Positions 2,883-36,332 of a stretch of 64,000 bases of DNA are shown here, one piece after another (the stretch's first letter is position 1; the number at the start of each line of letters is the position of its first letter). A program made the position numbers and the translations under genes. The DNA is from an uncultured virus (IMG/VR IMGVR_UViG_3300010358_000002) (lineage: Duplodnaviria > Heunggongvirae > Uroviricota > Caudoviricetes): IMG/VR virus record IMGVR_UViG_3300010358_000002. One strand, 5' to 3'. Under the pieces are notes generated by a model. It saw only the letters and a program-made list of their open reading frames with translations, searched no databases and had not been told where the DNA came from.

Positions 2883-3004
2883 TCGCTATCGTTGCTCCGT
2901 TTATTGTGCCATTCTTGTTGATCAGTGTTATATTAGCTGGATGCTGGTTTTATTGGCATCCGGTTTGGTGAGGGTGGGCCTGGGGTAGAGGGACAATTTC
3001 TTTA

Positions 3005-3033
3005 TTGCGTTCTGGCTTTCTGTATTGTAAAGT
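3005..3033 (+). promoter_or_regulatory. Sigma70-type phage promoter (TGTAAAG family)
   Basis: TTGCGT-17bp-TAAAGT. Confidence 0.6.
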
Positions 3034-3121
3034 AAAAATACGGCACCGTTCTTGGTCTTGGTAATAGGCCAGGGAGCATTGGGCGTCAGCTCTAGATGAC
3101 CCCATCAAGAAGGAGGGCAAT

Positions 3122-5099: not shown

Positions 5100-5440
5100 G
5101 GCTGGTATGCTGAATTGCATAGCTCGGTCGGTGTTGCTGGCACGATTTTTGCTTCAGCGTGCAGTGTTGCTGAAATGCAACTTGCGCGTGTCTGTGGCAT
5201 TTGAGTAACAGGATAGATTCTTGCAACAATGTGTCAGGCAACACGATAAGCTCAGGCCACAGTGTTGCTGAAATGATACATGTTGCACGAATACATCAGT
5301 TGCAAAATCGCATCAGTGTGGCATGACACACAGAAAGAGTCTGCAACAGTGATGCTGAAATGCAACACGAAAGAGTCTTTCAAGAAAGAAAGAATCTTTC
5401 TAGAGGACGATAGATTCTTTCTAGAGGAAAGATTCTTTCA
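5100..5440. repeat. Intergenic repeat array: 3x CAGTG(T/A)TGCTGAAATG and 3-4x palindrome AAAGA-N-TCTTT
   Basis: 16-mers at 5162, 5260 and 5347; palindromes at 5370, 5389, 5428 and a near-copy at 5410. Confidence 0.75.
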
Positions 5441-5441
5441 C

Positions 5442-5488
5442 AAAAGAAAAAAGAGAGAAAGAAGGGGAGTTTCGCTCCCCCTCTTTTT
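5442..5488 (-). terminator. Intrinsic terminator (possibly bidirectional)
   Basis: ggggag-tttcg-ctcccc flanked by A/G-rich and T tracts. Confidence 0.7.
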
Positions 5489-5676
5489 CAGGTCAGCTTC
5501 TGCTGGAAGAACTGCCGCTGGAGCTTCGCATATTTTTCTACATCATTTTGAAGCTTGGCCAGTTCCTTCTGTGCCTCAGGCGACAGAGCCTTCGTAAACG
5601 TATCGTAGTCAGTCACGGTTCGTAGGCCAAGACGCTTGGCCTTTTCGTTAAAGAAGTCTACTACCAGGGCGCTCAT
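5488..5676 (-). CDS. Small helical protein in its own transcription unit
   Basis: AGGAG RBS; TTGCTT-17bp-TACCAT promoter upstream; own terminator. Confidence 0.75.
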   Translation of the reverse strand: MSALVVDFFNEKAKRLGLRTVTDYDTFTKALSPEAQKELAKLQNDVEKYAKLQRQFFQQKLT

Positions 5677-5847
5677 TTCTAGCTCCTATGTTACCGGTTG
5701 AATTACCAGCATCATCATGGTAGCATACGGAGCTGAGGAAAGCAATAGGGAATTTGTTCGCTCACACGGGATTTCTAATCTCCATGCGAAAGAATTTGTC
5801 GCGCCCGCGATTCTGATCTTCTAGAGGGATTCTTTCTGCGGAACAAT

Positions 5848-5886: not shown

Positions 5887-6294
5887 TTACGCGACAGTGA
5901 TAAAGCCAGCGGCCTTATCCCAGCGAACATCAGCCAGCGCCGCAGCCGGAGAACGGTTAAACTTCTCCTTGCAGAGCTCCTGGTACCGCTTGACGGTCAT
6001 CCCGTCCGTGTACAGGGCGAACCGGTCGCCAGCCTTGCTGCGAGCAGAGCTGAGCTTGGGGTTCTTGGCCTTGTGCTGCGGAGGGACAGTGATCTTGGCA
6101 TCGAGGCCGAAGCTCTTTGCCGCGATCTCCGCCTTCCACCGGCTGACTTGGGCGGACGGCGTCTTGGGAGACGACGTGCCTTCCGTGTTACCGGTTGCAG
6201 CGACTTTCTGATCTTCCACCTTGGGCGTCTCCGCCTTCGGTGCCGTGCGATCCTGGGCCTTTTGGAGGGCCGCGGATTTGGTGCTCTTTGCCAT
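5887..6294 (-). CDS. Basic protein with NPK..DRF..Y..GMTV..Y..D.RWD..FI domain (putative DNA-binding)
   Basis: GAAAGGAG RBS; TTGCAC-17bp-TAAATT promoter; clear paralog of 35943..36332. Confidence 0.85.
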   Translation of the reverse strand: MAKSTKSAALQKAQDRTAPKAETPKVEDQKVAATGNTEGTSSPKTPSAQVSRWKAEIAAKSFGLDAKITVPPQHKAKNPKLSSARSKAGDRFALYTDGMTVKRYQELCKEKFNRSPAAALADVRWDKAAGFITVA

Positions 6295-15014: not shown

Positions 15015-15228
15015 GGCTGGCTCCTTTCATAAGCGTTGCCATATTTATACTTTACGCCAAAGAAAGGCTGAACGCAACAAAGAAATTAGGGTCTACACTC
15101 CTTTGGCGTTCCTCCACGGGCGAGACATTCGTTCTGTTGCTGCTGGAGCTGTTGCTGACGCAAAGGATCAAACCTATGCGGTTGCGAGCAGCCAAACAGA
15201 AGCAAAGATAGAAGTAGGTAGATTGCGC

Positions 15229-25350: not shown

Positions 25351-26910
25351 ATGATCGAGCCAACGATCTTTCTAGGCCCACCCGGAACAGGTAAGACAAC
25401 AACACTACTAGACACCGTTGACCAGGAGATGGCCAACGGTGTCCCTCCAGATCGTATAGGATTTATGACCTTCACCAAACGTGGTGTAGAAGAGGCTATT
25501 ACTCGTGCTAGTGCTCGTTTTAACCTTGACCGTAAGCAATTTCGATATTTCAATACCCTTCATAGTGCTGCATTTAGACATCTCGGCCTTAGCACTAATC
25601 AAGTGTTTACTGGAAAACGAGTTTATGAATTTGGTGCTGCCCATGGACTCGAGCTCCACGGTGGCTTATCGTCTGACGATGGAACATATACAAGTTTTTT
25701 CGGTGACGATCTAATCCTATTTCTTGAGAACTATGCTCGCATTACTCAGCAACCATTGGAACAAGTGCTAAGCAAATATGATTACGCCTTACCTGATTCC
25801 GATCGTGCTTGGCGAGCTATTCGTGCTCTCCATGCCTATAAACAGGAGCAAGGGCTGTATGATTTTACTGATATGCTTGAGGAGTTTATTAAGATAGACG
25901 ATCCACCACGACTGGAGGTGTTATGTGTCGATGAAGGACAAGACCTCAGTGAAATACAGTGGACCATGGTCGGCCAGCTATCCCGTCACGTTAAGCGTAT
26001 GTATGTCGCCGGAGACGATGACCAAACTATCTTCACATGGGCAGGTGCTTCAGAGCGATTCATCCACATGCCTGGTCGGGTTCACCAACTTACAAGAAGC
26101 TATCGAGTTCCTCGAAAAGTACACCACCTTGCCGTCAGAATAATTGAACAGATATACGACAGGCGTGAAAAAGACTGGGAACCAAGAGACGCACTAGGAT
26201 CTTATAACACTTTAGAAGGAATCTCAAGGCTAGATCCCGGTAAGCTAGACCCAGGCCTCGGCAACGTCATGTTGCTTGGGCGAACAGTAAAGATGCTAAG
26301 GCAAAAGTTCATCCCATATTGTAGACACCATGGGCTCCTATATCGTTACTTCGAAAACCCAAGTATCAAACCAACTCAAGCGGTTGCGATCGACGCATGG
26401 AATCAACTCCGACAAGGTTTTCGCATATCGGCGGAAGATGCTGTACGTATATACGATTTACTCCCGTCGGAAGGCCACAAGAAAAAGAAAGGGCTAGTAA
26501 AGAAAGGTTTCAAAGTACAACTCAATCGGTTGGCAGATCAACCAGATCCTCCGAAAATCACTATAGAAGAACTGCGACATGATTATGGGCTATTGGCGGA
26601 GGGAGAGTGGAAAGATGTTTTCACTGAGATCGAACCTAAGGACGTGGAGTATATCCAAAAAGTACTCGATAATGGGTTCAGTATATTGGATAAGCCTCAT
26701 ATACACATCTCTACGATTCACAGAGTCAAAGGAGGGCAGGCAAACACAGTTGTTCTTTTATCTGACACTCCGAAAGCATCCGAGCGACTTGCCGCTACCA
26801 ACAGAGACGAAGAGCGACGCGTTTTTTACACAGGGATCACAAGAACCTACGAAGACTTGATCGTAGTGCAACCAGACAGACGGCATTATTTCGGGGACTT
26901 GTTCGACTAA
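25351..26910 (+). CDS. UvrD/Rep-like superfamily 1 helicase
   Basis: GPPGTGKTT, TLHS, DEGQD, GDDDQTIF, SYR, STIHRVKG, FYTGITR. Confidence 0.92.
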   Translation: MIEPTIFLGPPGTGKTTTLLDTVDQEMANGVPPDRIGFMTFTKRGVEEAITRASARFNLDRKQFRYFNTLHSAAFRHLGLSTNQVFTGKRVYEFGAAHGLELHGGLSSDDGTYTSFFGDDLILFLENYARITQQPLEQVLSKYDYALPDSDRAWRAIRALHAYKQEQGLYDFTDMLEEFIKIDDPPRLEVLCVDEGQDLSEIQWTMVGQLSRHVKRMYVAGDDDQTIFTWAGASERFIHMPGRVHQLTRSYRVPRKVHHLAVRIIEQIYDRREKDWEPRDALGSYNTLEGISRLDPGKLDPGLGNVMLLGRTVKMLRQKFIPYCRHHGLLYRYFENPSIKPTQAVAIDAWNQLRQGFRISAEDAVRIYDLLPSEGHKKKKGLVKKGFKVQLNRLADQPDPPKITIEELRHDYGLLAEGEWKDVFTEIEPKDVEYIQKVLDNGFSILDKPHIHISTIHRVKGGQANTVVLLSDTPKASERLAATNRDEERRVFYTGITRTYEDLIVVQPDRRHYFGDLFD

Positions 26911-27308
26911 TGGAAACGCTTATGGGACTATATCAAATCTTTGATTCTATCTTACCAGATGAGAATGGTTGTCTCAACTTCCCTTCTCTTTCAGATAAGC
27001 CTAGGAGAAATCGTTATGTGTGGAAAGTTATAAGCGGAGAACCACGCGTCTGGGTGCATAGAGCGGCTTTGGAACGCAGGCTAGGAAGACCAATTCGTCC
27101 TGGATTTTATGCTCTACATTCTTGTGACAATAGGATCTGTGTTAATCCGAATCATATTTATGAGGGCACGTATAGAGACAATGCTAATGATAGGTCTACT
27201 AGGAATCATGGTAGTTACCTAATAGGAGATGATCATTGGACTAGAAGACATCCGGAATGGAATGTGCATGAAAGAGACGAATATGGAAGATTTAAGAAGA
27301 CGTCCTGA
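26910..27308 (+). CDS. HNH endonuclease (homing-type)
   Basis: VHR...ALHSCDNRICVNPNH...GT..DN..D. Confidence 0.85.
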   Translation: METLMGLYQIFDSILPDENGCLNFPSLSDKPRRNRYVWKVISGEPRVWVHRAALERRLGRPIRPGFYALHSCDNRICVNPNHIYEGTYRDNANDRSTRNHGSYLIGDDHWTRRHPEWNVHERDEYGRFKKTS

Positions 27309-27702
27309 GGGCAAGCTAATCTTGCTTGTAGACTTTGACGGATGCGTTCATAGTTATGCCTCGGGCTGGCAAGGTGCTACAATAATTCCTGACCCACCGG
27401 TTAAGGGAGTGTTTGAATGGTTGGAAACTGCTTTGATCTATTTTGATATACATATCTACTCTGCTCGATCTTCAGCTCCAGGGGGCAAGGAGGCGATGTA
27501 TGAGTATGTTAAGTGTCATGCTGGCAGGGATAGCACTCTTGCTATGCGTCTTAAATTTGTATCAGAAAAGCCAAGTTGTTTTCTTACTATTGACGATCGT
27601 TGCATTCGTTTTGATGGTAACTGGTCTGACCATCGCTTTGACCCGGTGAAACTTCTGGAGTTTAAATCATGGTACGAATTGAACAAATCAGCAATCCAAT
27701 AG
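27283..27702 (+). CDS. HAD-superfamily phosphatase
   Basis: Motif I VDFDG, SAR, KP, motif IV IDD. Confidence 0.85.
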   Translation: MEDLRRRPEGKLILLVDFDGCVHSYASGWQGATIIPDPPVKGVFEWLETALIYFDIHIYSARSSAPGGKEAMYEYVKCHAGRDSTLAMRLKFVSEKPSCFLTIDDRCIRFDGNWSDHRFDPVKLLEFKSWYELNKSAIQ

Positions 27703-28580
27703 AGCGTTTCGTTGCCTTTATTGCGGAGCGGGAGGCTATCCGTACCCGTAGATTTATTATGATGAAGCCTTGGCCATGGACAGAAGACCCTATATTACAG
27801 GAGTTTCGGTTCACAAATATACACAGGGAAGACGATGCAGTATCCCAACATTACCAGCGTACTATTCGCAATCGGTATAGCAACGATCCTCGTGTATTAC
27901 CCGCCACAGTCATCTATCGCTGGTTTAATAGGATTTCTACTTGCAATGCTATATTTAATAAACCTGATGTAAACAGCCTGTCAGTGTTTGAAAGATACGT
28001 ACAGAATTATGACATAGATCTCCTAATAAACTGTGTGGAGGCACTTCCACCTCCTCACGTAACAGGAGCATACATTATTCAAGGGAAACCCGGCCTTCCT
28101 AAAGCCAAGGGAGTAATCTATTATATTCATCGATGGCTTTTGAAACCATGGTTCGAACTTTACACAGCCTGGAAGGAGAAGCCTCCGCTACTGTCTGAAA
28201 TGTACGCAGAGCTTCATGGAGAAGGCTTGGGAAGCTTTATGCGAGGACAACTTGTCGCAGATCTCAAATACCTACCATTCATGTTAGAGGTAGAAGATTG
28301 GTGGACCTGGGCTACTCGAGGACCTGGAAGTATGCGCGGTTTGAACGTAGTATTTGATCGACCAATGATGGCCCCCTATGCTAAGGATCAATGGTTATTT
28401 GAGCTAAAGATATTGAGTGAAAGGGTTACTCCTTTGTTGGCAGGATATGGGATGGAACGCCTGCACAACCAAGATCTACAAAACTGTCTATGTGAATGGA
28501 GTAAATACACGAAAGTATTGACACTGCAAGGCCGTCCCCGACAAGTCTTCAAGAATAGGGAGCAAGTCCATGTTCAATGA
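27669..28580 (+). CDS. aGPT-Pplase clade 1-like DNA base hypermodification protein
   Basis: ERE.IR..R, PWTEDPILQEFRFTNIHREDD, RWFN, TGAY, GLGSFM..QLVADL, GPGS.RGL, QNCLCEWSKY. Confidence 0.85.
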   Translation: MVRIEQISNPIERFVAFIAEREAIRTRRFIMMKPWPWTEDPILQEFRFTNIHREDDAVSQHYQRTIRNRYSNDPRVLPATVIYRWFNRISTCNAIFNKPDVNSLSVFERYVQNYDIDLLINCVEALPPPHVTGAYIIQGKPGLPKAKGVIYYIHRWLLKPWFELYTAWKEKPPLLSEMYAELHGEGLGSFMRGQLVADLKYLPFMLEVEDWWTWATRGPGSMRGLNVVFDRPMMAPYAKDQWLFELKILSERVTPLLAGYGMERLHNQDLQNCLCEWSKYTKVLTLQGRPRQVFKNREQVHVQ

Positions 28581-29328
28581 TCTGCAAATATTAATTCCTT
28601 CTCGCTCCCGAGCCAAGAGTCAAAAGACCATCTACAATATGTCAGAAAGACTTTGGCCGATTACAGCTATCGTTGTGCCTGCGACACAGTACAGGGAATA
28701 TCGCACTACGATACCAATGCAGATAGGAATAATAGGTTGTGATGGCATTGGGAATTGTGCTACTCGGCACTTCATGTTGCATACCAAGAAGACAGGCAAG
28801 CTCATTACATTCGATGATGATCTAACATTCTATAGACGCACTGAAGATGGTACCAAGTTTGAAAGAATCTTTGGGAAAGATACAGAGCGCATGGTAGAGA
28901 TAATCCTGGCTTATCTAGATGATTACCCATTCGTAGGACTAGTCGATAAATTCATGAGTCAGCACACTCCCCGTAGGCACAAGGAATGTGCTAGATTCAA
29001 TGAGGTATATGGATACAACCGGGATACCCTACCGGTCCCGTGGCCTGAGTTTCGAGTGCCTCATGAAGAAGAACACGACTTTCACCTACAACTGATCACA
29101 CGTGGTCACAAAACAGCCGTAATCACAGAGTATAGTAAAGGACAGCGGACCTGGGCTCCAGGTGGTTGTGCCGATTGGCGTAAGACAGAAGTCTTTGAAA
29201 AGGCTTATGAACAGATGGGTCAGTTATGGCCTGGAATAGTCAGCTTTGGTGGCAAGCCGACAGACTTTATGCCATACCGAATACGATATAATTGGGAAGC
29301 AGCTAAGAGACAAGGTGGAATAACTTGA
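28570..29328 (+). CDS. GT-A fold glycosyltransferase (GREB1/TET-associated GT-like), copy 1
   Basis: IPSRSR, TR..ML, FDDDL, EEHDFHLQL, APGGC. Confidence 0.8.
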   Translation: MFNDLQILIPSRSRAKSQKTIYNMSERLWPITAIVVPATQYREYRTTIPMQIGIIGCDGIGNCATRHFMLHTKKTGKLITFDDDLTFYRRTEDGTKFERIFGKDTERMVEIILAYLDDYPFVGLVDKFMSQHTPRRHKECARFNEVYGYNRDTLPVPWPEFRVPHEEEHDFHLQLITRGHKTAVITEYSKGQRTWAPGGCADWRKTEVFEKAYEQMGQLWPGIVSFGGKPTDFMPYRIRYNWEAAKRQGGIT

Positions 29329-29384
29329 CTGTGGGTAAAGCATAATTGAGCTTGCGTTCACATGTGGCAAAAGGTAGCATAGTT

Positions 29385-30176
29385 ATGCGAATAATCATAC
29401 CAACACGAGGCCGCACGACCAACCAGTTAACGATAATGTCGTTAATTGGTTGTGACCTTATCAAACGTACCATTCTAGTCTGTCCACAAAACGAGTACAA
29501 CCGAATACGTTCAATGCGTGACGACTACGATGTCGTGGCGCAGCCAGAACAGGATTGGAAGATAGCTGAAAAACGGGCCTGGATCTTGGAGGAATGGCAT
29601 AGACGTGGTGAGGAAAAGATCATCATGCTAGATGATGACCTGCGGTTTGCCACTCGTAAAAGCGAAGGCGATTGGCACCTACGGGAAATTAAAGGTGAGG
29701 AACTTATTCCTGAGTTCCAGCGTATCGAGGATAAACTTGGGCCTGAGTTTCCACATGTAGGGTTCGGACAACGACAGGGGAACAACCAACTCGCAGAAGT
29801 CGGCTGGAAATCACCCGGTAAGATGTGCTATGCACTCGGGTTCTATTTACCGGTTGTTCTCAAGGAGTGTGTTCTTCGGCGTATCGCGTTGCGGGAAGAT
29901 ATGGAACTGTCACTGCAACTGCTATTGAAGGGCTATCCCAATGCCATCTGGACCTCTACTGTTGTGGACCAGCGTGGTTATGATAAGCCTGGAGGAACTA
30001 GCAATGAACGTACTGTCGAAATCTCTAATGCTGAAGCTCGTAGATTGGCTGAGCTATTTCCAGGGTACGTTTCAACTGTAGAGCGCGCATATAAATCTAG
30101 CCTACCCCGCATAGAAGTGATGGTTCAATGGCAAAAGGCGTTGGAGGATGGCCAACGTAGACGAGCTACAAAGTAA
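29385..30176 (+). CDS. GT-A fold glycosyltransferase (GREB1/TET-associated GT-like), copy 2
   Basis: IIIPTRGR, KRAWIL, MLDDDL, EDMELSLQLL..GY, PGG; promoter-like TTGCGT-17bp-TAGCAT upstream. Confidence 0.85.
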   Translation: MRIIIPTRGRTTNQLTIMSLIGCDLIKRTILVCPQNEYNRIRSMRDDYDVVAQPEQDWKIAEKRAWILEEWHRRGEEKIIMLDDDLRFATRKSEGDWHLREIKGEELIPEFQRIEDKLGPEFPHVGFGQRQGNNQLAEVGWKSPGKMCYALGFYLPVVLKECVLRRIALREDMELSLQLLLKGYPNAIWTSTVVDQRGYDKPGGTSNERTVEISNAEARRLAELFPGYVSTVERAYKSSLPRIEVMVQWQKALEDGQRRRATK

Positions 30177-30894
30177 GCTTCGGGACTTATCAAAAGTTTC
30201 ACTGGAGTATAGAGCAGACTATACCCCGGTCCCACATTTTGCGACCGAGTTCCATGGATATAGCCAAGCTCATATTTCATTAGCAGTATTTAAGAGGACT
30301 GAGCCACCAGAGCTTGCCTTGGCTCAGGCTAGGTTTATGGATTACCTTGGGCCAGAAGTATGCCCTAGAATTTATGCTGTTAATGATGATTCCTATTGTA
30401 TGGAATATCTGTACCCGGTTGAGTTTCACCATGATAGTTTGATTGTGCAAGAAAGTTTTTTAGAAAGACATGTTTGGTGTCGAGAAGTTAAAGTACGTGA
30501 TAGAGATCCATTGTTTGATACGCTGCCTCTATGGGTAAAGGAACCAAAGTGTGTGATCCATGGTGATCCTACCCTTGATAATGTGTTAATGACTAAAGAC
30601 GGGATGATGCGTATTACTGATCCTATTCCGCCCGCATTTCTTAGGAAGCCAAGCATCAAGGGTGTAGACCATGGAAAAATCTTACAATCTTTTCTTGGAT
30701 GGGAAGTCGTACTCCGTGGTGCTCCTCAGATACAGTATCAATGGCCGAACTACATGCAGGATTACGATACAGCAAAACGAGCCATCTTCTGGGCCATGGT
30801 TGCTCTTAAACGAATTGCCAAGCGTGATATCTTCGATAGTGCAACCCAATGGGCGACCAGAGTAGGAAAGGGATTGGAGGAGTTATGCAAGTAA
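30148..30894 (+). CDS. APH/choline-kinase-like phosphotransferase
   Basis: PRIY...YCMEY, IHGDPTLDNV, ITDP, DHGK. Confidence 0.8.
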   Translation: MANVDELQSKLRDLSKVSLEYRADYTPVPHFATEFHGYSQAHISLAVFKRTEPPELALAQARFMDYLGPEVCPRIYAVNDDSYCMEYLYPVEFHHDSLIVQESFLERHVWCREVKVRDRDPLFDTLPLWVKEPKCVIHGDPTLDNVLMTKDGMMRITDPIPPAFLRKPSIKGVDHGKILQSFLGWEVVLRGAPQIQYQWPNYMQDYDTAKRAIFWAMVALKRIAKRDIFDSATQWATRVGKGLEELCK

Positions 30895-31574
30895 TCATCC
30901 TAGCAGCAGGACAAAGTCACCGGTTTAAGGAAGCTGGATATAGTATTTCTAAACCATTCTTAGAAATTGAATGGCGAGGATTAGTGGCTCCTATGCTGGA
31001 ACATGTTCGCTATACCATTCCGTTAGAATTTAAGGGAGTCACAGTAGCCACATTGATAGGTGGGAGCCCTATTAGCTCAGAAGTAAATATCATAGGAATT
31101 GAAAATACAAAGGGTCCAGCAGATACAGTCCGACAAGTCATAGAAAAAATAGAGCCACAGTCCTGTTTAATTATGGATTCAGATATTCTTAACTTCACTA
31201 ATGACCTTCGTGGAATAACCAATCTACCAGATTCATACATCGGTGTTCTAGTTTGTCGCAGCAACAATCCTGCTTTTTCATATGTTGACAGCATAGAGTT
31301 GTTTAATGTGATAAAGGAAAAGAACCGTATATCTGAGTATGCAGTAAGGGGAGCCTATTTTGTTGGAAAGGATGTCATGGGTGAATTCACGTTTGCCCTG
31401 GATGCTGCAACTACTGGTCAACAAGAACCGTTTGTCAGCCATGCCTTCGATCTAATGGGGTGTAAGAAAATGGCAATCGAAACGACCTATGTACCGGTAG
31501 ATTGGGGAACACCCCATGATGTAGAATTAAGCGGCGCAAGAATCATAACAGAACGGAGGAAGGAATGTTCGTAA
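30885..31574 (+). CDS. Sugar-phosphate nucleotidyltransferase
   Basis: ILAAGQSHRF..AGY..KP, TKGPA, DSD, KEK..IS, GAYF, WGTP. Confidence 0.85.
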   Translation: MQVIILAAGQSHRFKEAGYSISKPFLEIEWRGLVAPMLEHVRYTIPLEFKGVTVATLIGGSPISSEVNIIGIENTKGPADTVRQVIEKIEPQSCLIMDSDILNFTNDLRGITNLPDSYIGVLVCRSNNPAFSYVDSIELFNVIKEKNRISEYAVRGAYFVGKDVMGEFTFALDAATTGQQEPFVSHAFDLMGCKKMAIETTYVPVDWGTPHDVELSGARIITERRKECS

Positions 31575-32599
31575 TCAATGCTACCAACGTTCGTGATGCC
31601 CTGCCTACGGCTGTGAAGTATGTCACACGCTTTGGAGAAACAGAAATAACCAGGAATGGACGAGCCAAAGTATCGCCCAAACCTGTGACTATCCGTTACA
31701 GGTATCCGAAGAATCATGTCTTAATCAATGCAGTGCGTGATGCAAATCCATTCTTCCACCTAATGGAAGCTATGTGGATGTTATCAGGTAGGAACGATGG
31801 GGGGTTCTTGGACAATTATATCAAGGACTTCAGTAAACTGTATGGAAATACCAATGGCATCGTGCCTGATGCCTATGGGTATAGATGGCGAACTCAGTTT
31901 GGTTATGACCAACTCACCTCACTTGTTCAATTATTAAAGGAAGACCCTACCACACGGCAAGCGGTCTTACAAATGTGGGATGATGATTTACAAACCAAGG
32001 GGTCTATCAAGCCCTGTAATCTTGTAGCTACATTTCGTATTCGAAATGATAAGCTGGACATGACTGTATTCAATAGATCCAATGACCTAATCTGGGGTTG
32101 TTGTGGGGCGAATGCAGTTCACTTTCCTCTTGTACAGGAATACCTTGCCAGTATGATAGGAATACAGCAGGGGGAATATTGGCAAATCACTACCAATCTG
32201 CACCTGTATCAAAAACATCTTGATAAGTTTCATGATCGTATAGAACTTGGCAGAGATTTACATGTAGCCCTGAGGGATAAAGGTGACTACGAGAATACAG
32301 CTCCTTTGATAAATGATCCTGCACATTTCGATGAAGACTTAGAAGATACCATGGCTATCATAGAAGATGTAAACCAAGATCTAGAAACCTATGATGGTAA
32401 CATATCCAACACATTCCTAGCGAATGTGGTTATCCCTATGGCCAGGGCACATCGTCACTATAAGAATAGAGCTATGGCTGAAGCGTTTGTAGAGTTAGAT
32501 AAAGTGATCGCTGCAGACTGGAAGCGTGCAGGAGTAGAGTGGGTGAAGCGACGAACCTCGGTACGAGTGACGGAGCAAGCAGATGATCAACCGGTATGA
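31565..32599 (+). CDS. Thymidylate synthase homolog, probable dUMP hydroxymethylase
   Basis: NPFFHL.E..W, AYGYR, TRQA, catalytic PC, RSND..WG...N (Asn at the pyrimidine-specificity site), NLHLY. Confidence 0.85.
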   Translation: MFVINATNVRDALPTAVKYVTRFGETEITRNGRAKVSPKPVTIRYRYPKNHVLINAVRDANPFFHLMEAMWMLSGRNDGGFLDNYIKDFSKLYGNTNGIVPDAYGYRWRTQFGYDQLTSLVQLLKEDPTTRQAVLQMWDDDLQTKGSIKPCNLVATFRIRNDKLDMTVFNRSNDLIWGCCGANAVHFPLVQEYLASMIGIQQGEYWQITTNLHLYQKHLDKFHDRIELGRDLHVALRDKGDYENTAPLINDPAHFDEDLEDTMAIIEDVNQDLETYDGNISNTFLANVVIPMARAHRHYKNRAMAEAFVELDKVIAADWKRAGVEWVKRRTSVRVTEQADDQPV

Positions 32600-33101
32600 G
32601 ATATATCGTTCCCGGTATTTGGCTGGATGTGTCAAGCGGTATTCGACTTGGCCTATGCTGCGTGAACAGACAGTAGGGCATCATTGTTGGCGAGTCGCGT
32701 GTATATATGTTGAAATATTTGGGATGCCACGAGCAGAGGTCCTCTATTTTTGTCTTCATCATGATAGTGGTGAACTCTGGTCTGGTGACATACCGTTTGG
32801 AGTTAAGAAACAAATGCCAGGATTAAAGGACCTGATGACCCAGGCAGAATCTGTCGGGTTACATCAACTAGAATTAAGACTACCAGAACTTACTAAGGAA
32901 GAGCGTATCAAAGTTAAAATATCTGATCTTCTAGAAATGCACGAAACAGGTGAGCATGAAATGAACCTTGGTAACAAGTACGCTGAGCCTATTGTACTGG
33001 ATACTTTGCATGAAGCACAACTTCTAGCGAAAGAATCTTGTATGAGTCAACATGTCAACGACTGGCTAAGAGAAAGAGGGAGTGGCAAACATGTCCGCTA
33101 A
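32583..33101 (+). CDS. HD-domain 5'-deoxynucleotidase/dNTPase (YfbR-like)
   Basis: VKRY, TVGHH, HD..E..SGDIP..VK, VKISD. Confidence 0.85.
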   Translation: MINRYEIYRSRYLAGCVKRYSTWPMLREQTVGHHCWRVACIYVEIFGMPRAEVLYFCLHHDSGELWSGDIPFGVKKQMPGLKDLMTQAESVGLHQLELRLPELTKEERIKVKISDLLEMHETGEHEMNLGNKYAEPIVLDTLHEAQLLAKESCMSQHVNDWLRERGSGKHVR

Positions 33102-33633
33102 CGACAAGAAAATCAAGCACTATGCATCTGAATATCAGCACTGGGATTTGGCTGTAGTCATTCCTCTGGGTTACTTCGAGGGATGCTCAACCAAATATGT
33201 CTGCCGCTGGCGTAAGAAGGGCGGGTTAGAAGATCTGCAAAAAGCGATGCATTATCTGGATAAGCTCATAGAATTTTATCCACTCAAGATTCCTGTACGC
33301 AATCTTAATCGAAGTGAAATACAGTACGAAGTAAGTCGTTTCTCAGCCGCCAATAAGCTGAGTATAATAGAAGAAGAGTATATTCTACTGCTCTGTAACT
33401 ATAAACATGAGGATGACCTAAGGACAGCACGGCTAGTGCTTGAAGATATCATCGACCTAGCCCATGAACCTGACTTTCATAGTGAGGTGGCTGAAGAAAC
33501 CGGCCTTGATCGTAAACAAGCTAAGGAACTTAACCTCGCTAAAGCTTACAATGTAGAACCGAACCGTCCCGGCACACCAGATGATGGAGGACACCATGCT
33601 ACTGGACAAACTGATCCCGAAGAACTGGCGTAG
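33091..33633 (+). CDS. DUF3310-like protein with C-terminal PolA O-helix-like segment
   Basis: HY...YFEG..TKYV.RW.KKGG.EDL.KA.HY; then DFH..VA..TGL.R..AK..N..KAY. Confidence 0.8.
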   Translation: MSANDKKIKHYASEYQHWDLAVVIPLGYFEGCSTKYVCRWRKKGGLEDLQKAMHYLDKLIEFYPLKIPVRNLNRSEIQYEVSRFSAANKLSIIEEEYILLLCNYKHEDDLRTARLVLEDIIDLAHEPDFHSEVAEETGLDRKQAKELNLAKAYNVEPNRPGTPDDGGHHATGQTDPEELA

Positions 33634-33813
33634 CGGAAAGCACGCTGCGGAGCCATTTACCGGTGACTGTAAACTCGTCAGGAACTCGTCTTTTCGTAAG
33701 CTCGCTCGGGCTATGCGGCGAGGAAAAGTGCCTGAAGAACGACAGTTTATTATTGATGAAGCACAGAAAAATGCATCTAGGCGCGCGGGTATGTACAGCC
33801 GTACCCGCACCCC

Positions 33814-33830
33814 CTGTTAATGGCATTACA
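33814..33830. promoter_or_regulatory. 17-bp motif CTGTTAATGGCATTACA, copy 2
   Basis: 43 bp upstream of the DNA polymerase start. Confidence 0.6.
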
Positions 33831-33873: not shown

Positions 33874-35862
33874 ATGGGCGCGCGTAAACCACCAAGCTTT
33901 GATCAATTCCCTCTATTCGTACCGGATAGCTCATGGGTTCCACCCACCGAACTACCGGACTTATCACGCGAGACTGAGGTCGCTATCGACACAGAAACGC
34001 GCGATGATATGCTCGCCAAAGATAAGGGACCAGGGTTCTATGCCTACGAAAAAAGCAATCCCAACACTGGATTTATATGCGGAATCTCCGTTGCGTGGCG
34101 GGATCAGTCTATATATATCCCTCTCCGGCATTACGGAGAACCATGCTATTTCGATATTGATCTCATCCAGCGATGGCTCAAAACCCTCGTTAGTCAGGAC
34201 AAGACCAGATTCGTATTCCATAATTTTGGATACGACTGGGGATGGATCGACGCCTCATTTAAAATTGAACCTCCATCCCTAATAGATGACACGATGGCCA
34301 TGGCAAGCATGGTCAATGAGAACCTTCCTTCATTTGCCTTGGATAATCTTTGCCGAACATTTGGACTGCCCGGTAAAGATGAAAGACTCTTAGTTGAGGC
34401 AGCAGGAAACTACAAGATCAGGCCAGAAGACGTTAAGAAATACATCTGGCGTTTGGGAAGTAAGTTCGTTGGCCCATACGCTGAGCAAGATGCTAAGAGC
34501 ACATTGCAGCTTGCTCAAAAGCTACGTCCTTTATTAGCAGCAGAAAACTTAGAAGCTGCATATCAGGTTGAATGTGATTTATTACCTATCACACTAAAGA
34601 TGAAACAACACGGTATTCGTGTAGATACACTAAGAGCTGAAGAATATTCCGATAAGATTTTAAAGCGTTGTGAAGAAGAGTTATTTGATCTTAGCAAAGC
34701 TGTACAAGATAAAGTCACAATTAAGAGCCTAAGACAGAATCGCTGGTTAACAGAAAAATTCATAAAGTTTAACTTAGAACCACCCAGAACTCAAAAAGGA
34801 CATTGGAGTTATGAAAAAAGTTATATGGCTCACCATGAGCATTGGTTTCCTCGTGCAGCCTATAGAATCAAGCATCAATGGGATTTGGCTGAAAAATTCT
34901 TGCAGAAGTTTATCCTGAAGTATGCTCTTAACGGTAGGATTTATGCTACGATTAATCAATTCCGCAGTGAATACGGAGGTGCTCGTAGTCACCGGTTTAG
35001 TTACAGTGACCCACCGCTTCAACAAATGCCAAGCCGAGATGATGAATGGGCTCCTGTTATTAGATCGTGCTTTATACCAGAAGATGGGCAGCTCTGGTGT
35101 AGCATTGACTATAGGCAACAGGAATATAGGCTCATTGTATTTATAGCTGAACGCTATAGAGCAAGAGGAGCTAAGAAGGCTGCGGATAGGTATCGCAATG
35201 ATCCTGATACAGATTTCCACCAATATGTAGCAGATATCACACGGCTCGAACGTCGTCGTGCTAAGGATACTAACTTCGCCAAGGCTTATGGAGCAGGGGT
35301 AAGGAAGTTTGCTTTAATGACAGGCTTAGATGAAACTGAAGCAATGGAGGTTTATAATCAATATGATGAAGAGCTGCCATTTGTCCGTGAAGCGTCGGAT
35401 AAATATACCCGATTTGCAGCACAAAACGGGTACATAACACTGATCGATGGAGCACGCAATCATTTTAACTTATATGAACCAATTATGAGAGACTTTGCTA
35501 GGGAAGATCAATATGAAAATATGGATTGCACCCCTTGCCTAGAGGAAGAATATGAAAGGCGTAAAAATGATAAGAACCATCCCTGGTACGGGGAGCGTGG
35601 AAAGCGTGCCTATACTCATAAAGCTTTCAACCGAATGATTCAGGGCAGTGCTGCTCGACAGACTAAGAAAGCCATGGTCAATCTTGTTAAAGCAGGATAT
35701 CAGCCTGTGCTGCAACTTCATGATGAACTATGCTTTAGCCTGAATAATGAAAAAGAGGCTCGTGAATGTGCTCAAATAATGCAAGAGGCAATGCCAGTGA
35801 TCACTATTCCAATGCTGACTGATGTGAAGCTTGGTAAAAGTTGGGGGCAACTGAAAAAATAA
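33874..35862 (+). CDS. polA: DNA polymerase family A with 3'-5' exonuclease
   Basis: ExoI DTET, ExoII HN..YD, ExoIII YAEQD; motif A DYRQQEYR, motif B RRRAKDTNFAKAYG, IQGSAA, motif C HDE. Confidence 0.95.
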   Translation: MGARKPPSFDQFPLFVPDSSWVPPTELPDLSRETEVAIDTETRDDMLAKDKGPGFYAYEKSNPNTGFICGISVAWRDQSIYIPLRHYGEPCYFDIDLIQRWLKTLVSQDKTRFVFHNFGYDWGWIDASFKIEPPSLIDDTMAMASMVNENLPSFALDNLCRTFGLPGKDERLLVEAAGNYKIRPEDVKKYIWRLGSKFVGPYAEQDAKSTLQLAQKLRPLLAAENLEAAYQVECDLLPITLKMKQHGIRVDTLRAEEYSDKILKRCEEELFDLSKAVQDKVTIKSLRQNRWLTEKFIKFNLEPPRTQKGHWSYEKSYMAHHEHWFPRAAYRIKHQWDLAEKFLQKFILKYALNGRIYATINQFRSEYGGARSHRFSYSDPPLQQMPSRDDEWAPVIRSCFIPEDGQLWCSIDYRQQEYRLIVFIAERYRARGAKKAADRYRNDPDTDFHQYVADITRLERRRAKDTNFAKAYGAGVRKFALMTGLDETEAMEVYNQYDEELPFVREASDKYTRFAAQNGYITLIDGARNHFNLYEPIMRDFAREDQYENMDCTPCLEEEYERRKNDKNHPWYGERGKRAYTHKAFNRMIQGSAARQTKKAMVNLVKAGYQPVLQLHDELCFSLNNEKEARECAQIMQEAMPVITIPMLTDVKLGKSWGQLKK

Positions 35863-35942: not shown

Positions 35943-36332
35943 ATGGCTGGACCTAACCCTACCCCGACTCAGGCACCGGCTGCGAAGCCTGCGGCCGAAA
36001 AGAAGGAGCCCAAGGCTCCGAAGGTAAAGAAGGAAGGAACCGGCGTTGCTCGGCCTCGCCTTCCCAAGTTCCCCGAAGAGCACGTGATCACTGTGCTCAA
36101 GGAGAATGCCAAGTCACGTACCGCCAACGACCGGTTCATGCGTTACAAGACCGGTATGACTGTCAAGCAGTACGTCGATAAGATCCATGCGGACTTCGAT
36201 CGTACGGATGGGCAGATCTATGCAGATATGCGTTGGGATGCAGACCATAAGTTCATCAACATCGGACCTACGGTGGTTCCGGTTCCCGTGGCTGCACCCG
36301 CTCCTGCTGCTAAGGCTCCGACTGCTGCCTAA
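35943..36332 (+). CDS. Basic protein, paralog of 5887..6294 (putative DNA-binding)
   Basis: GGAG RBS; histone-like K/A/P arms; DRFMRYKTGMTVKQY...ADMRWD..KFI. Confidence 0.85.
   Translation: MAGPNPTPTQAPAAKPAAEKKEPKAPKVKKEGTGVARPRLPKFPEEHVITVLKENAKSRTANDRFMRYKTGMTVKQYVDKIHADFDRTDGQIYADMRWDADHKFINIGPTVVPVPVAAPAPAAKAPTAA

Follow-up and report, generated by a model that had tools for sequence, protein, structure and literature searches.

An in-frame fragment of family A DNA polymerase within the linker of a phage DUF3310 protein, probably captured from a relative and tolerated

In a 64,000-nucleotide stretch of DNA from an uncultured soil virus of the Caudoviricetes (IMG/VR record IMGVR_UViG_3300010358_000002; hereafter the window), the gene of a DUF3310 (SaV-like) protein carries a 26-codon copy of the N-helix and O-helix (motif B) of family A DNA polymerase (PolA). 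Judged from sequence comparison, the copy is a true relative of PolA. It lies inside the protein and has been found in a single phage species. The insert is probably a tolerated fragment that was captured by illegitimate recombination from an unsampled relative. Coordinates of the features are collected in Table 1.

Table 1. Features of the DUF3310–polA region of the window.
Feature	Position	Strand	Basis or remark
DUF3310 (SaV-like) protein, 180 aa (P0053)	33091..33633	+	PF11753, phrog_5839, YuA/Sonora synteny, AF2
Copy of family A polymerase N-helix and O-helix (motif B), 26 codons	33472..33549	+	Alignments, O-helix HMM
New DNA relative to insertion-less cluster mates P0054/P0055: 27 codons replacing 3	33475..33555	+	
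Conserved PGTPxDGGHH linear motif	33568..33597	+	Present in 61/66 family proteins
Recombination patch, strains differing at 34 codons (23 synonymous)	33198..33465	.	Window vs L001, otherwise 99% identical
YfbR-like HD phosphohydrolase gene overlapping DUF3310 start	32583..33101	+	PF12917, E 2e-7
Basic 74-aa ORF, no known family	33596..33820	+	Present in several close relatives
Intact family A DNA polymerase with 3'-5' exonuclease, Phe762 type	33874..35862	+	PF00476, E 1e-42; PF01612
Polymerase's own N-helix and O-helix	35212..35289	+	Same type as in close relatives

The protein that carries the insert was assigned to the DUF3310 family by its Pfam score (PF11753; 24.9 bits vs. a gathering cutoff of 24) and by a PHROG match (phrog_5839, E 2e-27). 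Several PHROGs labelled "nucleotide kinase" match its N-terminal part, and its Atlas neighbours are DUF3310 clusters at 0.82–0.84, which we treat as a lead only. Translation likely starts at the ATG at 33091, preceded by a Shine-Dalgarno-like GAGGGAG (33076–33082), giving 180 aa. The protein is homologous to YuA gp20, whose gene sits directly upstream of polA in a synteny shared by YuA and Sonora, and its gene occupies the usual slot of YuA-like phages, i.e., 5' of polA and inside a hydroxymethyluracil-type modification cluster. A related protein, SaV of the lactococcal phage SK1, carries DUF3310 and confers sensitivity to AbiV according to the accessible part of PMC8306868. The modification cluster of the window (27669–33101) encodes an HMUDK helical-domain protein, two TET-associated glycosyltransferases, an APH-like kinase, an NTP transferase, a thymidylate-synthase-like enzyme and the YfbR-like HD protein, a predicted gene content that fits a sugar-modified hydroxymethyluracil pathway. 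A free-standing HNH endonuclease gene (26910–27308) lies between the helicase gene and this cluster. The basic ORF between the DUF3310 gene and polA, 57–77 aa long, is conserved in several close relatives and belongs to no Pfam or PHROG family. Elsewhere in the window, another fragment of 30 aa is shared between about 15028–15117 (+) and about 2968–3054 (−) (57% identical, E 2e-5), and the small proteins at 35943–36332 (+) and 5887–6294 (−) have a 48-aa region in common (42% identity, E 2e-9).

Proteins of the DUF3310 family consist of a helical core, a linker of variable length and then the conserved PGTPxDGGHH; in the window, the core extends to about residue 125 and is followed by a disordered tail. 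The linker comprises 7–18 aa in 53 of the 56 family proteins in which it is measurable, 28 aa in one and 37 aa in the two carriers of the insert. The PolA piece had initially been described as fused to the end of the protein. It is instead internal, 6 codons before PGTPxDGGHH and 27 codons before the stop codon, and represents an in-frame insertion into the length-variable linker, not a C-terminal fusion. The DNA of the PGTPxDGGHH motif also provides the next ORF in the window with its GGAGG site and ATG. We rejected the notion that the motif is merely the ribosome site of that gene, as it is kept with varied third positions and also where a downstream ORF is lacking. PGTPxDGGHH further occurs in proteins without DUF3310 (L009, L010, L011, L017, L030, L032, L050, L071, L087, L093), most of them encoded directly upstream of polA; the nine scanned against Pfam gave no convincing match and the four scanned against PHROG gave none. 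The occurrence of one short motif in different proteins of one genomic slot suggests a common binding partner.

The ungapped match of 33472–33549 to 35212–35289 reported in the preliminary description was exact on re-examination, in sequences as well as coordinates, with 15 of 26 residues and 47 of 78 bases identical. Smith-Waterman alignment of the whole DUF3310 protein with PolA reached a score of 79, as high as in none of 3000 shuffles (mean 35.9, maximum 62), and seven DUF3310 homologues without the insert scored 30–45. With the DUF3310 protein as query, tblastn against the window matched PolA at E 1e-4. An unguided tblastn search of a 33-aa segment against 50,697 phage records yielded 69 records at E ≤ 10, the best 30 of the matches all being DNA polymerases, and an HMM built from 68 distinct PolA O-helix segments recognized the insert with 38.6 bits (E 9e-10). 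These shuffles, the blind tblastn search and the HMM together establish the insert as a true PolA homologue, and the PolA origin and in-frame retention proposed for this piece are thus borne out. Only a 28-residue stretch of the DUF3310 ORF is matched by the full PolA HMM, and profile comparison of the DUF3310 and PolA families revealed no homology; the match to PolA is therefore private to the insert. The DxH...R-x3-K-x3-(F/Y/L)-x3-Y pattern of motif B is present in register. The register of a Klenow alignment supports the earlier reading that the Arg, Lys and Tyr of motif B are kept, to which His can be added, with Leu at what we take to be position 762 in E. coli numbering. The Gly following the motif Tyr, found in 66 of the 68 PolA segments, is replaced by Asn. 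The last codons of the new DNA (33550–33558) may be a decayed continuation of motif B.

The insert was found in 2 of 66 DUF3310 family proteins, both from one phage species, and among the first 50 homologues P0003 alone carries it. The window's own 90% cluster has four members, two with the insert and two without (P0054, P0055); the latter have three residues where the carriers have 27, with the same HEPD junction already present. The DUF3310 ORFs of the other fetched loci do not contain it, except on the contig of L001. The proposed comparison with homologues in related phages thus returned 64 of 66 proteins without the tail. A conserved domain fusion would be shared by homologues of more than one species, and this one is not (2/66); the tail appears largely unique and unconserved, the outcome that the preliminary description had named as speaking against its reading. 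Searches for further alleles or a donor gave nine candidates among longer proteins, none at E ≤ 10, and no candidate among shorter ones. A phmmer search of 1.84 billion representatives returned one match, a simple-repeat protein of no real relation. Pattern searches gave 0 matches in genome contigs and, with two tight patterns against viral sequences, the contig of L001 and one PolA, and nothing else. The Atlas search with the insert gave no usable match, and a metagenome scan of at least 596 stretches gave six loci, none with the insert among the matches listed.

Over 5 kb, the window and L001 share 99.0% identity, and the insert is identical in both. The strains differ in a recombination patch that stops at the left edge of the insert and in a second patch at 33703–33806. 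With the insert confined to one species and these patches between strains, it represents a single event, at a locus that recombines with relatives.

The insert shows foreign affinity. It matches PolAs of other phages in up to 19 of 26 residues, a maximum that is biased upward since those PolA loci were fetched with insert-derived patterns, and the PolA of its own genome in 15 of 26. With this greater similarity to foreign PolAs, it does not behave as the remnant of an older polA of this genome that had been proposed. It combines features of the Phe762 and Leu762 groups of PolA. Leu occupies the 762 position in 68 of 112 PolA segments and is a common natural state of family A PolA, as stated in the accessible parts of PMC6302109 and PMC10201439. 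The donor search found nothing above 19/26 aa or 53/87 nt, which counts against the capture reading. Compared by eye, the native linker codons that precede the junction and the polA codons that precede DxH agree in 9 of 12 bases, a similarity that could have seeded a crossover. Five long PolAs contain no intein or large insert at the O-helix site.

The preliminary description had taken protein conservation despite many codon changes as favouring selection, an argument that fails a control with foreign PolA segments. Ten of the 15 residues shared by the insert and the genome's own PolA are encoded by different codons (67%); 14 PolA segments of other phages with 14–17/26 identity to the same PolA show different codons at 64% of shared residues and 45.7 of 78 identical nucleotides. 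Since the control PolAs display an equal codon pattern, a foreign donor alone suffices, and the synonymous differences would reflect selection on two polymerases before the capture. The alleles of the insert are identical, and consequently no dN/dS can be computed. A neutral simulation, in which sampled Phe762-clade segments were mutated conditional on the number of residues unseen in the clade, assumes a donor from that clade and has low power (29 codons); within these limits, it gave no signal of purifying selection on the insert. With 18 proteins fetched independently of the insert, a new residue occupies 8 of 19 invariant columns (7.7 expected, P 0.74), and with all 38 proteins 4 of 17 (5.3 expected, P 0.23). 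Four of five key residues were kept in 28–41% of the neutral runs. If the donor came from the sampled clade, the neutral model implies about 0.22–0.27 substitutions per site, which is long for a passenger without frameshift or loss and counts against neutrality. Glu is found at column 5 in 1 of 112 PolA segments and at column 9 in none of 112, both columns being otherwise hydrophobic. These residues could reflect adaptation to existence as a free helix. Column 9 is Glu in E. coli Pol I, and an unsampled donor could thus be the source of that residue.

Other explanations of the insert have to be weighed against capture. Chance resemblance or an assembly artefact has a practically negligible probability. 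The match is short and reaches only E 1e-4 within the window, but no shuffle scored as high (0/3000), the HMM gives E 9e-10, and an artefact would duplicate the genome's own polA exactly and not at 60%. Moreover, independent contigs standing for two alleles bridge the insert in three of four runs (X1, X3 and X4, of which X1 is possibly the source sample; X2 has no cover there), and L001, an IMG/VR contig, carries it letter for letter; these contigs refute the assembly artefact raised earlier as a possible objection. Very unlikely, too, is a relic of the lineage's own earlier polA, left in frame after replacement of the polymerase gene. Adjacency to polA (1.7 kb) and a GC3 of 0.35, like that of the genome's polA (0.38), would agree with it, and swapping of polymerases is documented in tailed phages in the accessible part of PMC11348598. 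However, the PolA type of the window is shared by close relatives that lack the insert, so that no polymerase swap came with it. Moreover, the insert is an internal piece of polA lying within a different gene, and nothing else of polA remains between the two genes. Still less probable, to the point of being remote, is a repurposed dNTP-binding module on a protein of the modified-nucleotide pathway. In Pol I, the His, Arg and Lys of motif B contact the triphosphate, and all three are kept; the gene lies within the hydroxymethyluracil-type cluster and several PHROGs matching its N-terminal part are labelled nucleotide kinase. Yet the number of key residues retained lies within what neutrality predicts, 64 of 66 family proteins act in the same kind of pathway without the insert, and the protein lacks the carboxylates of motifs A and C with their metal sites, the palm domain and the template. 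The copy has a net acidic charge of −2 (6 acidic, 4 basic residues) vs. +2 in the PolA segment (4 acidic, 6 basic), and this charge, together with the lack of motifs A and C, makes dNTP binding by the insert unlikely. In the AF2 model, pLDDT is 86–98 in the core, 54–72 in the insert and about 40 beyond it; the O-helix part is predicted to be helical, and the tail has no alignment support. Fold searches with this model gave no match at E ≤ 0.001 (best Z 5.9), and a search by sequence gave no solved structural relative.

A further alternative arises from a second copy. In L175, a distant phage, a separate 116-aa ORF (5419–5769, +) with its own AGGAG site and a Cys-rich start lies between the DUF3310 gene and polA and contains an 88-residue copy, 92% identical, of the O-helix and fingers of the same phage's PolA. 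Homology to polA starts shortly upstream of the DxH codons, and 13 nt are deleted at the start. Of the 88 codons, 12 differ synonymously and 7 non-synonymously; the residue after the Tyr is changed from G to D. The first half hardly departs from polA, and most differences in the second half are silent. No further viral contig was found to contain the copy, L258 being the L175 contig itself. In a survey with a full-length PolA HMM (259 sources, 201 with near-full PolA, 174 distinct), 2 of 174 distinct PolA loci had a partial PolA copy nearby, the window and L175, a count subject to detection bias; these are also the only carriers among 54 distinct DUF3310 loci with polA downstream. Both copies cover the O-helix and are located within or beside the DUF3310 gene. 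Both begin at about DxH, which suggests either that polA breaks recurrently at this site or that the element is selected for. Under selection, a non-catalytic copy of PolA's most conserved surface would act as a decoy that occupies a host sensor or inhibitor without triggering it; solubility of the free helix would be due to the acidic substitutions. We regard this as unlikely. Host sensors of family A polymerases do exist: in the accessible parts of the sources, Avs19 is activated by the core domain of such a polymerase, with no confident model of the complex (PMC13581612), and mutations in the DNAP gene escape Borvo (PMC11348598). The shared location of the two copies, the separate ORF, ribosome site and synonymous excess in L175, and the helix predicted for the insert would all be in keeping with a decoy. 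Against it, each copy is confined to one phage and no family of such mini-proteins was found. Sets of 107 and 97 cultured-phage records gave no second PolA copy, although a 26-aa copy that had diverged would escape this search; since conservation is highest in the O-helix, diverged copies of other PolA regions would be missed. The L175 copy shows the start deletion and the G-to-D change, and its synonymous excess was possibly inherited from a donor allele. A mimic could equally trigger Avs19, and the insert in the window resembles foreign PolAs more than the PolA it would protect. The broader proposition, that YuA-like phages repeatedly copy the O-helix and fingers into or beside the DUF3310 gene and keep them as a soluble decoy against Avs19- or Borvo-like sensors, is doubtful to the same degree; it would imply two independent origins, one in the window (26 aa of foreign source, acidified) and one in L175 (88 aa from its own polA, in a separate ORF). 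If true, such decoys would map the epitope of polymerase-sensing immunity that could not be modelled in the accessible part of PMC13581612, and would mean that phages build anti-defence peptides from pieces of the sensed protein.

The most probable explanation is therefore capture of a fragment that was tolerated. Some 80–90 bp of a related phage's polA, comprising the N- and O-helix codons, would have entered the DUF3310 linker once by illegitimate recombination, probably in a co-infected cell, helped by the short stretch in which the native linker resembles the codons before the polA DxH. The insert would have stayed as the frame was kept, preserving the downstream PGTPxDGGHH and the start site of the next gene, and as a disordered stretch tolerates indels. 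It would be translated as a passenger helix with no polymerase or dNTP-binding function, and either it has drifted since the capture or its donor is unsampled. The two strain patches mark the locus as recombination-prone, in favour of capture. Counting against a neutral capture, the insert is in the PolA reading frame, it outlasted a recombination tract that ends at its edge, and an independent O-helix copy lies beside the same gene in L175. If captured neutrally, the insert is a minor but clean illustration of the way in which disordered linkers of phage proteins acquire foreign motifs. It also calls for caution: with a foreign donor, synonymous divergence from a gene in the genome itself cannot be read as a sign of selection.

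Compared with known systems, the DUF3310 protein of the window is an ordinary member of the DUF3310/SaV-like proteins (PF11753; YuA gp20) in the usual slot upstream of polA, set apart from every other member examined by the PolA-derived insert of the carriers. Among the literature matches listed, there was no report of an O-helix copy in DUF3310 proteins. Relative to motif B of family A PolA in YuA/phiJL001-like and related phages (PF00476), the homology is ungapped, with His, Arg, Lys, the 762 position and Tyr in register. However, the insert has only 26–29 residues, sits in another protein without motifs A and C, lacks the Gly after Tyr and carries Glu in two columns that are normally hydrophobic. 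The polymerase core sensed by Avs19 includes the copied element, and among the matches listed for the literature on Avs19- and Borvo-type phage triggers there was no decoy of this kind. Capture of gene fragments by illegitimate recombination is known from mosaic phage genomes. In T6, a homing endonuclease brings about microhomology-linked segment amplification, according to the accessible part of PMC13096335. As described there, that process differs from the present case, in which we see no tandem amplification, no donor and no sign of HNH cutting at the insert. Capture in mosaic phages and, from what is accessible on it, the T6 amplification nevertheless share with the window a short foreign segment at an indel-prone site of a recombining locus, here with an HNH gene 6 kb upstream.
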